From contig OZ245922.1 in the NCBI GenBank assembly GCA_965229705.1, positions 210,001-242,000 of the forward strand: 32,000 bases of DNA. Reading direction: 5' to 3'. The DNA is from Candidatus Saccharimonadota bacterium (GTDB taxonomy: Bacteria; Patescibacteriota; Gracilibacteria; BD1-5; UBA6164). Position numbers and translations under genes: made by a program. Shown here piece after piece: positions 6,128-23,700 of the stretch. Below the pieces are notes generated by a model. That model worked only from the letters and a program-made list of their open reading frames with translations. It was not told where the DNA came from and made no database searches. How positions within the stretch are numbered: position 1 is the stretch's first letter; the number at the start of each line of letters is the position of its first letter.

Positions 6128-6976
6128 TTATACATCAGATCTTGCGAGAGCCTTATCTTTTTCCTCACGGATGATTTCTTTTTGTTTGATAATTCCTACA
6201 AGACTCAGAGCAATATCATAGAGTAGCTTTTCATCATTTTCTCTAAAATCTTGTGAACGATTTGCTATCACAATATACCCCATCAAGTTTTCTCATATTT
6301 GCAAGGGAACATGTAAAGTTTTTGTGAGTACTTTAATGCCTTCTTGTTGTATTTTTTTTATATCAAGTTCAGCTCACTCAAACTCTATGATCATATTCAT
6401 ATTTCATACAAGAGAGCTATAGTGAAGTTTAAAGTAATTTTCCATAACAATATTTTTTTCTATATACATGATTTGCTCAACTCAGAGAAGCAGTCGAATT
6501 TTTTCCAAAAGATCACAGAGAGATTCGAGAGTGATTTCTGATATTTCCGCAATGGCAAGATTCACCTCATGATGAATAGTGATTTCTCGATTGGCTTTCT
6601 CAAGGCGAAAATGTGATATATGAATAATCGAAGTAAGAAACACAAAAGCAATCTCAGGAGACTCCTGAAACATTTGCTCTATCATATCAACATGAATTTT
6701 TAAAAGAGCAGTATTACGAATAGCTCTTACATCAGCAGATTTTTTGATATCTCTGTTTTTGAGAGAGGATTCTCACACTATATCCCCTAGAGGAATATTT
6801 CATAAAACTTTTGTTTGTGATCGATGAAGAGTATTTTGTCTTTCTACTACAAGCTCACCATCATAAACAATATATATGTAGGGATCTATATCTCATTCTC
6901 GAAACAAAAACTCTCATGCATTGAGGTGTATGAGTTCAAAAAATCATGATTTATACAGTGTTTCTAAGGGGAGCAT
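6128..6976 (-). CDS. Cyclic-nucleotide-binding (CAP-effector type) domain plus GAF domain protein, no recognisable output domain
   Basis: 282 aa, ATG 6976-6974 to TAA 6130-6128, with several in-frame TGA. The N-terminal half reads FLFREGDIDPYIYIVYDGELVVER...LGDIVGESSL...RSADVRAIRNTALLKI, the classic cNMP-binding beta-roll pattern. The C-terminal half reads ...LHVPLQI-G-ENLMGYIVIANRSQDFRENDEKLLYDIALSLVGII, a GAF-like end. The start codon overlaps the pilT stop (TAATG). Confidence 0.72.
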
Positions 6977-14317: not shown

Positions 14318-14938
14318 CTATTTTACTATCTTATCAATTAACCCATATTCTAGAGCTTCTTGGGCTGACATAAAATTGTCTCTATCACAGTCTTCTTTTA
14401 CTTTTTTTACTTTTTGCCCTGTATGCTCTGCAAGAATATTGTAAAGAATATCTCCTGTTTTTTCGATATGACGAGCAGCAAGCATGATATCACTTGCTTG
14501 TCATTCTGCTCCACCTAGGGGTTGATGAATCATGATTTCTGCATGAGGAAGAGCATAGCGTTTACCTTTTTCTCCTCCAGCGAGGATAATAGAACCCATA
14601 CTTGCAGCAAGTCCCATCGCGACAGTGATCACGGGACATTTTACATATTGCATAGTGTCGTAGATAGCAAGCCCTGCAGTCACATGTCCTCCAGGTGAGT
14701 TCACATACATGGTAATAGGGGCTTTTGCATCTTGTTTTTCGAGAAAAAGCAGCTGCGCAATGACAGTATTTGCTACCGCACTGTCTATCCCTTCACCCAG
14801 AAAGATGACTCGATCTTCGAGCAGTCGAGAGTAAATATCATAGGCTCTTTCTCCGCTGGGAGTTTTGTCTATTACTGTGGGAATAAGTGTTGAAAGAATG
14901 TCTTTTTGTATCTTTTTAGATGTAACGGTCTTTGTCAT
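14318..14938 (-). CDS. clpP: ATP-dependent Clp protease proteolytic subunit
   Basis: 206 aa. Motifs: [43 protein letters not shown] (catalytic Ser), [11 protein letters not shown](TGA)-[27 protein letters not shown] stop at 14320-14318. Track ORF 14501-14938 is the part before the single TGA. Confidence 0.93.
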
Positions 14939-15236: not shown

Positions 15237-15740
15237 ATGAAACAGATTTTCCAAAGCTATGAAGAAGGGTTAGGTGTAATGAAGAGTTATGACGGAGAAG
15301 CTCTCTTCTTCTCTTTCATTCCACCATTTGTCATTAGCTTATTTGCTCTTCTTACAGGGATACTGATAGCCTTATTTCCAGCAACTACTATATTATTAAT
15401 AGTAGGATATTTTACCTGTATGTATACGGCAAAGCTTGTTAGTGAAGCTACTGGGTCAAAAATTATAACAGGTCTTGTGCTATTTTTGATAGAAAGAGCA
15501 GTTCCATTCATTATTGGAGAAGCTGTCGGAGTATTATCGTTCCTTGCCTCTATGGTGGTAATATTAGGTTATATAATAATATTTATAATTAGTATTATAG
15601 TGATGACAATACCCATATTCCTTTGGAGTATTTTGACCTGGGATTTCTCAATGCTTGAACAAAGAACAGAAAATGATATCCCAAGGGCTATTCACAAGTT
15701 CTTTTTACCAAAGAGTTATTACTCTTATCTTGTTGATTAG
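15237..15740 (+). CDS. Hypothetical polytopic membrane protein (167 aa)
   Basis: Intact ORF with GGAGAAAAAATG upstream. About four hydrophobic helices (FIPPFVISLFALLTGILIALF, ILLIVGYFTCMY, GLVLFLIERAVPFII..., ILGYIIIFIISIIVMTIPIFLW). TAG stop and no TGA codon. It is followed by a strong terminator. I recognise no family. Confidence 0.6.
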   Translation: MKQIFQSYEEGLGVMKSYDGEALFFSFIPPFVISLFALLTGILIALFPATTILLIVGYFTCMYTAKLVSEATGSKIITGLVLFLIERAVPFIIGEAVGVLSFLASMVVILGYIIIFIISIIVMTIPIFLWSILTWDFSMLEQRTENDIPRAIHKFFLPKSYYSYLVD

Positions 15741-18264: not shown

Positions 18265-20031
18265 ATGAAAAAAAAGATGTATGTTTACGGTGTTATTTTT
18301 GCTACGGTTTTTTTCCTTTCGTTTTCTCAAATACAGGCATCAAGTATTGAAAAAGCCTATGAGAGCTTTACCAACAAAATTAAGGAGCAGTCTCCCTCTC
18401 AGCAACAAGCAGTACTTCGTGGATTAGGAAGTAAATTGCAAGACCTGAGTTATCAAGAAAAGTATCGTACATATACCGCTTTTTTTGATCAACTTTCAGA
18501 TCTCAATAATGAGAAAATATTTGAAATATGGCAACAACAAGAGCTTTCTCATACGAGTCAAAAAAAGAAAGAAGACAGTGAGGAAGTGATATATAAAAAT
18601 GCTCAAAAAACAGCAGAAGATACTCTTCCAGAATATATAGCAGATTTGTTGCAATGATCACAGAACTATGAATTTTTTATGATCAATGATCAGCAAGAAA
18701 TATATAAAGATAATAGTATTTATAGACTGCTTTTTTCAGAATATTTTCCTATTAGTAAAGAAATAGTTTCTCTCCTGCAAGATAAGAGAGGGATGATAGC
18801 ACAGCTCGGAGAGGGAGAATATATTTTTATTGAAAACTTTGAGCTTGAGAGAAAGATTCCATACTCAGAACTCGCTGAAGAATTTGTGTTTGTGACTCCA
18901 GAAATAAAATTTCATCAGAATAATCAACAACTCTATGCGTATAATTTCTCAAAGTTTCAATACTACGGAGATGTATATGGTTTGTATCGTGAACAGCTCA
19001 GGCGTTCTTGATTTTCTCAAGAGGATACTCTGATATATCGAGATGAAGAGTGAAAATATAATTTTGTATGAGACTACAATAAGCAGTCTCTTGTGGCTTC
19101 AAATACGGTATATGGAGTCAACAATAAGCAGAGATTTTTAGAATATCTTGTAGAAGATGCAAAGGCTCAAACACCAGATGTGAGTCAGTCAATTTCTGAT
19201 ATATCTTCTCAGGTAGAGAAACTGAAGAAGAGCGCTGCTTCTGAGCAAGACTTTATACAAAAAGTGTATGCGTGGATCTTGGATCATACGAGCTACAGTA
19301 GTGTCGTAGACCTTCAAGATGAGACAATCTTTTCGGGTATAGAGACATATGAAAATGCTTCAGGTGTGTGTACAGGGTATACAAAACTTATGGCGTATAT
19401 GTTGTATTTGTGAGGAGTAGAGGATGTGGAGGTGATTCGTGGTCATGTGATAGATGCAGATGATTTTCCTGAGATTGGTCACGCGTGGATCAAGATAGGA
19501 GACCGATATTATGACCCAACATTTGATGATCCTGTCTGAGCACAGCGTACGCGTGAAGTTTCTCAGTATGAGTATTTTGGTCTTCCGAGAGATGTTTTTT
19601 ACGCAAACCGTTATGAGTACGGTGATCTTCCGGATTTTCTTCTATCTGCTGGAGATACGGAAATTTCTGAACATATTTATGATAATCTTGTAAGTATTTT
19701 ACCAAAATATGAGAGGAGTCTTGATATGTATCCTGTTTTTTGAGAAATTCAGTTTCGTGAGGAAAACGGTCTCTCACCATCAGAACTTCTCACTCCAGAG
19801 TCTCTCAGTGAGTATGTGGAGACCCTGCAGGTACGAGATGGGAATGTGAGAGTGAATATATGAGGGAGAGAAGTGGAGTTTCGTAGTATTTTTTATTATC
19901 TTTTAGATGAGGAAAATATTGAAAATGTATTGGATATTTTGAGCTATGATTTTGAGGATGTATATCTCTTGCAGTGGTATAATAGCGATAACTCTTTTGA
20001 TTGGAGATTGGTGTATCAGTGGAGTGAGTAA
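18265..20031 (+). CDS. Secreted transglutaminase-like cysteine protease-fold protein
   Basis: 588 aa joined across TGA from track ORFs 18265-18657, 18679-19011 and 19093-19413, all in one frame. Sec-type signal MKKKMYVYGVIFATVFFLSFSQIQA. Transglutaminase-core triad context: SGVCTGYTKLMAYML ... EIGHAWIKIGDRYYDPTFDD (Cys, His, Asp). TAA stop at 20029-20031. Confidence 0.75.
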
Positions 20032-20076
20032 AAAAAATTTGATTTTTTGTCTTCTATTGCATATAATACAAAACAG

Positions 20077-20115
20077 CCTTCTAGAAATCTAGAATGGGCG
20101 CGTATTTTTTATTTT
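20077..20115 (+). terminator. Rho-independent terminator after the transglutaminase-like gene
   Basis: CCTTCTAGA-AA-TCTAGAATGG hairpin (20077-20097), then GCGCGTATTTTTTATTTT. Confidence 0.6.
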
Positions 20116-20139
20116 CACGCAGAATTCACTAAAGAAAAA

Positions 20140-20497
20140 TATAGGGAGAAAACATATGTATTTTATTGCTGAGAACCCTCATAAAGCAAAAACTTTGTAC
20201 CTGGCCGGAGTGGCCATGCCAGGTCAGTATGTAGATATGAGGATTCCAACAGAAAGCCCGGCAATTATGCCGAGAGCTCAAAATAGGTTTTTGACACGAA
20301 TAAAAAAAAGGAACTCTGAGAGAATGAAAGGTTTCATCTTTCAAAGGAATCATTGTTCGAATATTAAAGCGAGAAACGCTCGACGCAAGACACAGAAGCT
20401 TAAACGACGACTTGCGTCGTAAGCCCGGGGGGGGCGGCATATGCCGCCCCACACATCTCTCCATGATATCTTCTGGATTTTTCCAGAAGATTTTTTG
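20140..20497 (+). ncRNA. Candidate structured non-coding RNA, class unresolved
   Basis: An island visibly richer in GC than its surroundings, within a 727-bp intergenic gap. Stacked hairpins: CCTGGC/GCCAGG 20200-20223; CGGCA-ATTA-TGCCG 20259-20272; GAAAG/CTTTC 20326-20342; GCTT..ACGACG-ACTTG-CGTCGT-AAGC 20398-20424; GGGGCGGC-ATAT-GCCGCCCC 20431-20450. It ends in a clean intrinsic terminator, TCTTCTGGA-TTTT-TCCAGAAGA plus TTTTTT (20469-20496). Strand was inferred from that terminator. Only the unconvincing 88-aa basic track ORF 20156-20422 overlaps it. Confidence 0.5.
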
Positions 20498-20758
20498 TTA
20501 GGGAAATGCGGAAAAACTTCGTATTTCATCGTCAAAATCCAACATTGTCTTCAAACTCGTACAATGAGTACGCTTATTTCAGCCAAGTTGATTTTTCCTT
20601 GAACTACTTGTTTTTACACATTTCCTATTTTTCCGTACTTCTTTAGTATATAAAAAGTATATATTTTTTTGATTTTTATAGAAAGTTTTTTATAGTAATT
20701 CAAGGACTCATCCATAAAATATTCTCAGAGTTTCTTTACGCAAAAGTAATTATTATTT

Positions 20759-23700
20759 ATGAACAAAGCAGATTTTCAAAAAAACTATAACATGCTCAAT
20801 CCCGAGCAAAAAAAAGCAGTTGATACTCTTGACGGACCGATAATGGTCATAGCCTGACCCGGAACAGGAAAGACGCAGATAATAGGAATGCGAACTGCAA
20901 ACATCATCCTCAAAGCTTGAGTCGATGCAAGCAATATTCTGATCACTACTTTTACCGAGGCAGGCGTTCTCGCAATACGAAAAAGACTGATTTCTATGAT
21001 AGGAAGTGAGGCATATAAAGTGCAGGTATCAACCATACACAGCTTTGCGCAAGATATTATCAAGTCTTTTCCTGAAAAGTTTACTGAGGATAAGATGAAT
21101 ACCGCGCTTGACAGCATAGAAAGCCTCGAGATCATATGAGATATTCTCTCAGGGCTCCTCTCAAAACATCAGCTCGAATATCTCACTACATATGGTGATC
21201 CCCTTTTTTATGGGAGAGAGATTTCACAACAAATACAAAAAATAAAATGAGAAGGGATATCCCCGTCAGACTTTCAAGATATTATAGATGAAGAAGAAAA
21301 AAAATCACTGCAGTGGCTCGAAGAAAAACGAAATAATCCCCGCATCAAAAAAATAGAAACCTACCAAGAAAAACACGAGAAATATATAGGGAAGCTCAGA
21401 GAACTCCAAAAAATCTTTCAACGCTATGAAGAGTTTTTGAGAGAAAAGAGCTTGTATGATTTTCATGATATGATCAATATTGTTCGTAAAAGACTTTCAG
21501 AAGATACTCAGATGCAGGCATATTTTGCCGAAACATTTCAATATATTATGATAGATGAGTATCAAGATACTAACACCCCTCAAAATGAGATTATTGGACT
21601 CATAGCAGAGCAATCAGAAAACCCCAATATTATGGTAGTTGGAGATGATGATCAGTCTATTTATCGTTTTCAGTGAGCGAATATCGAGAATATGCTAGGT
21701 TTTAGTACCTCATATCCTCAAGCTCTTTTGATAGTGCTTACAAAAAATTATCGTAGTACACAAAGCATTCTTGATGCGGCAAAGTCCTGTATAGAACATA
21801 ATAGTGAAAGACTGATACAAAGAATACCAGGACTAAAAAAACATCTTATTTCACAAGTCTCTACCTCTACACAGTGAAACATCCCCTCTCCATGACAAGA
21901 CAAATCATCTGTCTCTCTCTACGAAGCAGCAACAAATATCCATGAAGATCTCTATATTCTCAAGAATATAGAAGCATGCTTGTCATCATGAGTCGCGCAA
22001 GAAGATATAGCAATCATTGTTCGATCAAATACAGAGGTTATCTATTATTCTTACCTTTTAACTCAAAGAGGGATTGCTCTGAGCTCAAAGTTTGAATCAA
22101 ATATCCTTGACTCAGATATTATACAGCTCTTACTTTCTTGCGTAAAAATAGTTGAAAATCCCTACGAACATGAGAAAGACTTACTTGATGTTCTGCGGTC
22201 TCGTTTTTCTGGAATATGCCATATGGATAGCCTCAAGATGAGTCATTTTCTTTATAAACAAAACTATGGAAAAACTCGAAGGTATGCCATGAGAATATTT
22301 GATCTCTTGAGTAATGAGCAGCGTCTAAAAGAACTTGATCTGAGAGATCAAGACTCCTGCCTCGCTTTTGTTCAAAAAATTCTTGATCTGCAGAGGATTG
22401 CTGCAGAGAATAATTTTGCGTATTTTCTCTCAGAAATGATTGAACACTTTGAATTTCTCAGCTGAGAAAAACATATATGTCGTCTTGAACAGCGAGCAGA
22501 TATACTGACGCTTTTTCATGAAGTTCGATCATGGATGAAAGGAAGAAAAAGTATGAGCATTCAAGACTTTCTCAAAAAAATAGAACTCTACATGACTCAC
22601 GGATATCATATATCTCGAATACAGACTCTATGAAAGATATCGGGTATACAAGTACTGACAGCTCATAGCTCAAAGGGTCTCGAATATGAGTATGTTTTTG
22701 TTCCATGACTCAGAGTTGGATCTTGGGAAAGTAAGATGACTCGCAAACTGATATCTCTTCCAGAGTGAATGACGGGAAATGGTCTCCAGTTTTCAGATAT
22801 CAGTATGATGAGTGATGTAGAAAAGAAAAAATATCTTTCAGAAAGGCAAATGCAAGAAGATAGGAGACTTTTCTTTGTGGCTATCACGCGAGCAAAAAAG
22901 CGGGTGCTTCTTTCTTATCCACAAAGTAAAGATGGCAAGATTCATATTATTTCTCCATTTCTCTGAGAAATTTGAGAGTATGACAGAGATGACTGTATAC
23001 TGAGTGAGTGAGAACTGGCAGAGTGAATGAAGAGTGTTATACAAAGAGAATCAAGTTGTATAGAATACGCTGATGATATATTTGTGTATATAGAACAATT
23101 TTTTGAAAACTACAAACTCTCAGCAAGTGATCTCAATACTTTTTTATTGAGTCCTAAAGACTTTTTATATCGAACTATTTTATGCTATCCTTTTGAGGAA
23201 AATGAGAATAGTATTTTTGGAACTATGTATCATCGAACACTCGAACTATTTTATCAGCAGATACAAGAGATGGGAAAAGTCCCAGATATCTGATATCTTC
23301 ACTATGTTTTTGACAGGCAACTAGAAAGAGAGTTTGTGACAGATGAACAGTTTCATAGGCTCAAGAAACGCTGATATGAATCACTAGAATGATATTATAA
23401 AAAGTATGAATGAACATTTAGAGCGCCACTGAAGACGGAGTATAAATTCTCTCGAAGAAATGTTTTTTTTGAGGAAATTCCCTTAACTGGAATTATTGAT
23501 AAAATAGAGCTTATCAGTGATGATTTTCAGCCTCATACTTATGTTGATTGAGGTCAGGGAGGTCTTTTTTCTCAGAGTGTGAGGATTACAGATTATAAAA
23601 CCTGAGCAGCAAAATATCTCTGACAGATCAAATGACAAGACAAAGATGGAAATGCTTTTTCAGGATATGAAGAAGGGAGGCATGGTCGTCAACTTATGTT

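Follow-up and report, generated by a model that had tools for sequence, protein, structure and literature searches.

A strongly folded candidate transcription unit with an orphan 88-codon reading frame in a variable intergenic slot of a Gracilibacteria genome

Results and Discussion

The window analyzed here comprises 32,000 nucleotides of contig OZ245922.1 (assembly GCA_965229705.1, positions 210,001 to 242,000 of the forward strand), assigned to Candidatus Saccharimonadota bacterium and placed among the Gracilibacteria by GTDB. It contains, in the gap between a transglutaminase-like gene and a helicase gene, a G+C-rich and self-complementary island at positions 20116-20497. We see an even chance that this island is a short, self-contained and highly folded mRNA for an orphan basic protein of 88 residues. 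In that case, a sigma-70-type promoter would direct synthesis of a plus-strand transcript of about 420 nt, in which a hairpin-bearing leader and a Shine-Dalgarno (SD)-like GGGAG motif would precede an 88-codon open reading frame (ORF). The orphan product, very basic and about 10 kDa in mass, would consist mostly of one long helix. A G-C clamp hairpin followed by an intrinsic terminator would close the unit (Table 1). The perfect stems would render the RNA compact and most likely serve to shield the message from RNases and to tune translation rather than form part of a catalytic or housekeeping RNA. That the unit is transcribed, that the ORF is translated and that the stems are protective are inferences. 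In related Gracilibacteria, the same fixed slot holds functionally analogous, mostly sequence-unrelated cassettes; their promoter resembles that of the window unit, and five loci have its terminator as well.

Layout and coding potential of the unit

TGA is a sense codon in the source genome, and the long genes of the window, with 222 in-frame TGA codons, are open only under genetic code 25 (or code 4). Read with code 25, the two flanking genes stop at 20031 and start at 20759, respectively, which agrees with the gap of 727 bp described in an earlier note on this DNA. Within this gap, a promoter-like site, an SD-like motif, an uninterrupted ORF with a proper stop codon and a terminator follow each other on one strand, i.e., in the arrangement of a stand-alone small gene that is bracketed by plus-strand promoter and terminator signals. 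The promoter-like site predicts a transcript start near 20074-20076. All stems and the terminator that the earlier note had listed were recovered in their places, and the terminator proved to be a genuine intrinsic one that is even kept in relatives. The TAA codon of the ORF sits at the foot of the 9-bp stem and is separated by 8 nt from the clamp hairpin, the stem of which is overlapped by a G8 run (20427-20434). This G-C hairpin is probably a stabilizer or a processing barrier. In a viral scan with its 20 nt, the sole match (contig L152) was an unrelated terminator in G+C-rich DNA.

Table 1. Features of the island and its surroundings, in window coordinates.
Feature	Position	Strand	Remarks
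Promoter-like site TTGATT-17 nt-TATAAT	20039-20067	+	Consensus scan, 10/12 matches; 8 nt past upstream stop codon
5' leader, about 80 nt	20074-20155	+	Small hairpin TTCTAGA..TCTAGAA (about 20076-20099); one further, weak stem
SD-like motif GGGAG	20144-20148	+	7 nt 5' of ATG; read from sequence
88-codon ORF, ATG to TAA	20156-20422	+	TAA at 20420-20422
Perfect 7-bp stem ACCTGGC/GCCAGGT, 12-nt loop	20199-20224	+	Within ORF; hairpin census and minimum-free-energy folds
Perfect 9-bp stem CGACGCAAG/CTTGCGTCG	20381-20419	+	Spans last 13 codons of ORF; stop codon immediately 3'
All-G-C 8-bp hairpin GGGGCGGC-ATAT-GCCGCCCC	20431-20450	+	3' untranslated part; without T-run
Intrinsic terminator ATCTTCTGGA-TTTT-TCCAGAAGAT + T6	20468-20497	+	Terminator scan; 10-bp stem
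Minus-strand ORF, 165 codons, product P0071	20089-20586	-	Public gene caller; TTG start, table 4
Transglutaminase-like gene, secreted product	18265-20031		Upstream of gap
UvrD/PDDEXK (AddA-like) helicase gene, 1050 aa	20759-23911		Downstream of gap

An ATG-initiated ORF of at least 80 codons arose in 7.3% of 5000 dinucleotide shuffles of the transcript, and in 0.84% of 5000 shuffles such an ORF was located behind an SD-like motif. Because this combination of SD-like motif and ORF is rare by chance (p ~0.008), and because relatives carry small-ORF cassettes in the same slot (see below), an mRNA is the more likely reading. Among the six frames, that of the ORF attains the top codon-usage score, and its codon usage exceeds that of 97% of 125 shadow ORFs, i.e., ORFs of at least 80 codons in wrong frames of real genes. 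The 22 long genes in the window mostly have no SD motif, and this SD-led, strongly folded and probably highly expressed unit is therefore conspicuous.

The predicted product has a mass of 10.3 kDa and a pI of 11.6, and tryptic peptides such as TLYLAGVAMPGQYVDMR and IPTESPAIMPR would be expected from it. A single-sequence AlphaFold2 model (mean pLDDT 72) depicts residues 1-39 as unstructured and residues 40-87 as one long basic helix; a single-helix prediction of this kind is uninformative with regard to function. Profile searches of the 88-residue sequence against Pfam(-A), NCBIfam and PHROG returned no family at E <= 10. According to the earlier note, clear homology of the ORF to a real protein family would have spoken against a structured RNA; homology to a known family was not found, and it is the SD-like motif together with the ORF that nonetheless favors an mRNA. 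Ribosomal proteins bS21 and bS22 resemble the predicted protein in composition only and yielded no profile match. A ribosomally made precursor of a modified peptide, cleaved by the adjoining transglutaminase-like protein, was likewise discarded because relatives keep that gene without any cassette.

Composition and folding of the island

The G+C content of the island amounts to 42.7% vs. 35.0% for the window as a whole (standard deviation 3.7%, 382-nt windows), which places it in the top 1.4%. This enrichment is real but moderate, since a higher value (45.8%) is reached in the ClpP coding region near 14450. Folding energies were expressed as z-scores against dinucleotide-preserving shuffles and amounted to -4.64 for positions 20100-20500, to -5.4 for the predicted transcript (20074-20497) and to -3.0 to -3.1 for the ORF portion alone; the leader (20074-20160) folds with -15.6 kcal/mol and z = -1.86. 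For comparison, 26 coding windows from the same genome gave a mean of -0.78 (standard deviation 1.27), and the tmRNA encoded in the window gave -3.3. The G+C-rich and self-complementary character ascribed to the island in the earlier note is thus confirmed. In addition, a hairpin census revealed that the entire 32 kb contain six perfect stems with five or more G-C pairs, three of them within 20199-20450.

Structure prediction yields local hairpins strung one after the other, and no long-range helices. The minus strand of the island folds equally well as the plus strand or better, from which it follows that the stems are essentially perfect Watson-Crick palindromes that provide no strand information by themselves. 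The repeated AAGCCCGG (20254 and 20421), earlier taken as a hint at alternative folds, is present at chance level, as 62% of shuffles hold at least one repeated 8-mer. An insertion flanked by this repeat was rejected for the same reason, and terminal inverted repeats were not seen. A CsrB/RsmZ-like sponge was rejected as well: the six GGA motifs counted by eye in 424 nt correspond approximately to the expectation from base composition.

Cassettes in the same slot of related Gracilibacteria

About 70 loci were obtained via homologues of the upstream protein and a metagenome scan. Homologues of this transglutaminase-like protein share at most 42% identity with it, and the order transglutaminase-like gene, gap, helicase gene is widespread among the loci. 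In distant relatives, the gap measures about 100 bp or contains other cargo such as a glycine-zipper lipoprotein or a minus-strand ORF of 150-160 aa. A nearer clade (loci L081/L082, L083, L084, L086, L095 and L148-L151) carries units resembling that of the window. All of these feature a TTGACA-type promoter right past the stop codon, a hairpin-rich leader of 75-220 nt, a strong SD motif (AGGAG, AAGGAGG or AGGGGG, spaced from ATG as in the window) and one or more small ORFs. Provided that the contig is long enough, these are followed by 3' hairpins and a terminator; the contig of L148 stops inside its ORF. G+C content is elevated in most of them, and the five units tested are strongly folded (z = -3.4 to -7.8). 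Slot, orientation and the order promoter, leader, SD motif, ORF and 3' hairpins are therefore as in the window, whereas nucleotide or protein similarity to the interior of the window unit is not detectable. The cassettes of L081, L083, L084, L086, L095 and L148-L151 are undescribed in the libraries searched.

The 3' end of the unit behaves differently from its interior. A terminator of the type ATCTTC-loop-GAAGAT-T-run is common to the window, L081/L082, L149, L150 and L151 at the same position, and alignment and motif scans identified a variant in L095 and half a copy in L083. It has been kept at 43-50% identity of the neighboring protein, which marks the terminator of the window as an ancestral and selected element of the gap. 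The same identity values, compared to 51-81% among the other loci, establish the window lineage as the outgroup, and it is therefore unsurprising that similarity in the interior is undetectable. The type of cassette is discordant with the phylogeny of the neighboring protein.

Evidence for protein-coding cassettes comes from a family of small proteins (55-68 aa), each with its own SD motif, at L081 6053-6253, L083 6003-6170 and L150 4506-4712. The members from L083 and L150 exhibit the core motif NGAD...EAEALxEMGxxxLL and are 46% identical, with 14 of the 24 identical residues specified by different codons; the two sequences differ most often at third codon positions, and their alignment scores z = 7.8 against shuffles. 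This pattern shows that the cassette of L081, L083 and L150 is truly protein-coding and under selection at the protein level. Its leader comprises about 175-220 nt; strong structure was seen in L081 and L083, the two units tested. No Pfam or PHROG match was obtained for the family members from L081 and L083.

Other cassettes combine conserved and unrelated parts. L149 and L095 have promoter, leader, SD motif and 3' end in common, but not the body of the ORF, which is unrelated between the two. A second pair, L086 and L151, has the promoter in common as well as an identical block of 26 nt, GGACTGAGGTTATCGAGCAGATGACC (L086 4958-4983; L151 4554-4579), which forms a 7-bp hairpin, contains GAGG...ATG and was found in no other locus examined; the neighboring protein is just 54% identical between these two loci. 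As a separate observation, L081 carries in the same slot (6452-6860) a pair of genes for 58 and 79 aa, the second of which has a weak match to ParE/RelE toxins (E = 0.04). By this match, the pair looks like a toxin-antitoxin module and would mark the slot as an insertion hot spot.

The interior of the window unit was also sought outside this clade. Searches of about 150 loci from relatives, of phages and of plasmids produced no match to the island body at either the nucleotide or the protein level. In particular, blastn and nhmmer returned no nucleotide match to the interior in the related loci, blastn in distant mode gave no match in phages and three chance matches in plasmids (E ~0.4), and a viral scan with the 88-aa protein was negative. 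Direct comparison of the interior with the cassettes of relatives (the ORF2 family, L086/L151 and L149/L095) by blastn, tblastx, tblastn, nhmmer and Smith-Waterman alignment revealed no homology; the best Smith-Waterman score reached z = 2.5 against shuffles, which is non-significant over 12 tests. When the helicase was used as a query against the genome collection, a single moderately close relative emerged (L010, 54% identity), which is non-syntenic and lacks an element upstream of the gene.

Messenger RNA, structured RNA or remnant

Several observations weigh against a coding function of the 88-codon ORF. Compared with real 88-codon windows, its codon usage ranks at the 5th percentile, a borderline value, and its G+C content is flat over the three codon positions (42/43/40% vs. 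46/32/29% for the genome). Long chance ORFs are common here because code 25 has just two stop codons, and two longer minus-strand ORFs overlap the frame. The public gene caller skipped the ORF, and exact look-ups retrieved no record of it. A word-index search of 5.8 billion proteins found no homologue, and neither did a full HMMER search of 1.84 billion representatives, the one match of which was spurious (a repeat-rich protein of 3837 aa for which ten weak repeat matches were summed). Among the relatives, the basic peptides of L086 and L151 are no more alike than shuffles, and it is the 26-nt block at the RNA or DNA level that has been kept instead. Furthermore, several of the relatives' small SD-led ORFs stop at TGA, a sense codon in those hosts (L083 5905-6190, L150 4380-4510 and L151 4436-4545, twice with an ATGA stop/start overlap); the flanking genes on these three contigs require TGA as sense, and if TGA is read through, the frames reach or pass the terminator. 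Such cassette ORFs may be untranslated, may give rise to transcripts without a stop codon or may stem from donors using the standard code. Finally, the folding excess of the island is comparable to that of the genome's tmRNA, as would be the case for a functional RNA.

Some of these observations are in line with a species-specific structured RNA, about 420 nt long and either non-coding or dual-function, in which the stems would be functional, for example for protein binding or regulation, and the ORF incidental or minor. We regard this explanation as a serious rival, though a less likely one. The folding of the complete unit surpasses that of the tmRNA (-5.4 vs. -3.3), half of the G-C-rich perfect stems of the window cluster in the island, and the ORF is an orphan without codon-position periodicity in G+C; the TGA-terminated ORFs of relatives and the conservation of a nucleotide block rather than a peptide in L086 and L151 fit in as well. 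On the other hand, the stems are free of G-U pairs and their antisense folds equally well or better, unlike selected RNA structures of some age, an arrangement of SD-like motif and ORF such as the one present is improbable by chance, and one cassette family in the very same slot is clearly protein-coding. Homologues that would allow covariation to be demonstrated are missing, and no Rfam match emerged at E <= 10. By the refuting condition set in the earlier note, the absence of conservation and covariation for the island body across the approximately 150 loci counts against a structured RNA, although a lineage-specific non-coding one is still plausible. Of that reading, the folded, autonomous, transcript-like unit with its terminator stands, whereas its RNase P variant does not (see below).

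Multi-hairpin RNAs of a few hundred nucleotides that contain a short ORF and end in a terminator are known as dual-function RNAs, as exemplified by Staphylococcus RNAIII with hld and by Bacillus SR1. The island has no sequence or family relationship to either (Rfam negative), it comes with no target-pairing region or quorum-sensing locus, and its ORF occupies 63% of the transcript, far above the respective share in RNAIII. The small mRNA that we favor finds its closest likeness in stand-alone monocistronic small-ORF genes, which have their own promoter, SD-like motif, short ORF and terminator, encode a lineage-restricted orphan product and are overlooked or mis-called by automatic annotation. 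It differs from these by its strong folding (z = -5.4), by its G+C enrichment in an A+T-rich, SD-poor genome with TGA as a sense codon and by the fact that the content of its slot is swapped between relatives.

The combination of a lineage-unique interior with a conserved terminator would also be explained if the island descended from an earlier cassette, or from DNA gained by horizontal transfer, and were now decaying or neutral, with only promoter and terminator still functional. The patchy distribution of cassette contents relative to the phylogeny of the neighboring gene and the atypical composition and codon usage agree with this idea. Against it, promoter-like site, SD-like motif, 88-codon frame, TAA stop codon and terminator are all intact, and perfect stems would erode quickly if they were not selected. 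We therefore judge a remnant to be improbable.

Known RNA families and RNase P

When the whole window was compared with Rfam 15 (4227 models) at gathering score, only the tmRNA at 1718-2176 was reported. A scan with cmscan, a check proposed in the earlier note, covered 851 nt around the island (19950-20800) on both strands at E <= 10 and found no RNase P, signal recognition particle (SRP), 6S, T-box or riboswitch RNA and no credible family; ARAGORN detected nothing. The assertion that the island fits no known RNA class is thus in accordance with the Rfam results. At this permissive threshold, six weak matches to other families appeared (12-26 bits). The top one, a PyrR binding site (26.1 bits vs. 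a gathering score of 54, E = 0.29), was dismissed: it aligns with just the two 3' hairpins, many of its pairs are broken and no pyr gene is located downstream. In five syntenic loci, Rfam searches at E <= 5 detected nothing in the gaps, RNase P included.

A highly divergent RNase P RNA, as suggested earlier, is in our view extremely improbable, and so is any other housekeeping RNA, e.g., of the SRP or 6S type. Length and elevated G+C of the island are comparable to those of bacterial RNase P RNAs (RF00010/RF00011), and two ACAGAA strings are present that had been likened to the strands of helix P4. Some RNase P RNAs of the candidate phyla radiation (CPR) score below default thresholds (PMC8172020). 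However, Lui et al. (2021; PMC8172020), whose set included Gracilibacteria, report that with lower thresholds Infernal found every one of the divergent CPR RNase P RNAs, and the complete miss of the island by this program therefore argues against RNase P, the more so as neither RF00010 nor RF00011 matched at E <= 10 while other families did with 12-26 bits. The P4 pattern GAGGAAAGTCCGGGC does not occur in the whole window, even with up to three mismatches. The P4 5' strand (GAGGAAAGUCCGGGC) that would pair with ACAGAAxxCGGCUUA is absent; the ACAGAA strings are unsupported by covariance models, and none of the folds predicted here offers a 5' strand complementary to them. The island also differs from RNase P RNA in that it is a string of local hairpins lacking the long-range P1/P2/P4 architecture and other conserved motifs, and its sequence is not conserved in related genomes as would be expected for any housekeeping RNA; in the syntenic slot, the relatives carry small protein genes. 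It follows that the genome must encode its RNase P RNA elsewhere.

A public gene call on the minus strand

A public gene call places a protein of 165 aa on the opposite strand of the island, and its exact product, P0071, is present in a public protein collection. In this reading frame, TGA occurs in frame six times (3.6% of codons vs. about 2.3% in the genes of the window), and hydrophobic stretches are encoded; both points speak in favor of a gene. We nevertheless regard such a gene as very improbable. The codon-usage score of -0.185 falls below all 93 real 88-codon windows and is typical of shadow ORFs. P0071 is a singleton without homologue and without match in Pfam, NCBIfam or PHROG, the TTG start codon lacks any upstream signal, and the frame runs antisense across the conserved plus-strand terminator. 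Its richness in phenylalanine, leucine and isoleucine corresponds to the expected antisense of a purine-rich strand. The frame is thus probably a shadow ORF outside the element, and its annotation is probably wrong.

A possible expression slot

Taken by itself, the small folded mRNA is a modest, lineage-restricted finding, an ORF-bearing structured transcript rather than a new RNA class, from a kind of genome, about 1 Mb in size and with TGA as a glycine codon, whose small orphan genes and structured transcripts have hardly been explored. A more far-reaching and quite doubtful proposal is that the gap constitutes a dedicated expression slot in this clade of Gracilibacteria, with a similar promoter, mostly the same terminator and swapped or diversified, G+C-rich and structured interiors. 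No less tentatively, these interiors might change faster than the flanking genes, some encoding small proteins and others, with ORFs that stop at TGA, perhaps specifying RNAs or deriving from donors with the standard code. If this were true, the window unit would be one allele of an undescribed, hypervariable system of small-gene or RNA cassettes, possibly tied to a host- or prey-associated lifestyle. Active exchange or diversification would then offer a new handle on how reduced, host-dependent bacteria vary a small share of their repertoire of proteins or RNAs.

Neighboring genes and further observations

The product of the transglutaminase-like gene (table 4) is identical to public protein P0001, the named relatives of which are designated 'Candidatus Gracilibacteria'. 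Elsewhere in the window, the tmRNA gene at 1718-2176 on the plus strand matches Rfam RF00023 over its full length with 87.7 bits and went unreported by ARAGORN. A plus-strand ORF for a membrane-like protein of 167 aa (15237-15740) is the only long gene of the window without in-frame TGA, and it is one of the few preceded by an SD-like motif (GGAG).

A 46-aa ORF beyond the terminator (window 20506-20646, plus strand; matched stretch 20524-20721) exhibits weak tblastx similarity to L107 5358-5482. This similarity was set aside as probably spurious, the L107 stretch being A+T-rich and of low complexity. About 100 nt 5' of the helicase start, an 18-nt near-palindrome, TATATAAAAAGTATATAT, is located at 20646-20663, and an identical copy resides at L084 5715-5732; it may be a conserved site, promoter or operator, from which the helicase gene is controlled. 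In three relatives, the ATG of the helicase gene follows about 7-10 nt after a TATATACT box (L083 6255-6283, L149 4690-4708 and L151 4685-4703). This short distance suggests leaderless helicase mRNAs, which fits the general scarcity of SD motifs before the genes of the window.

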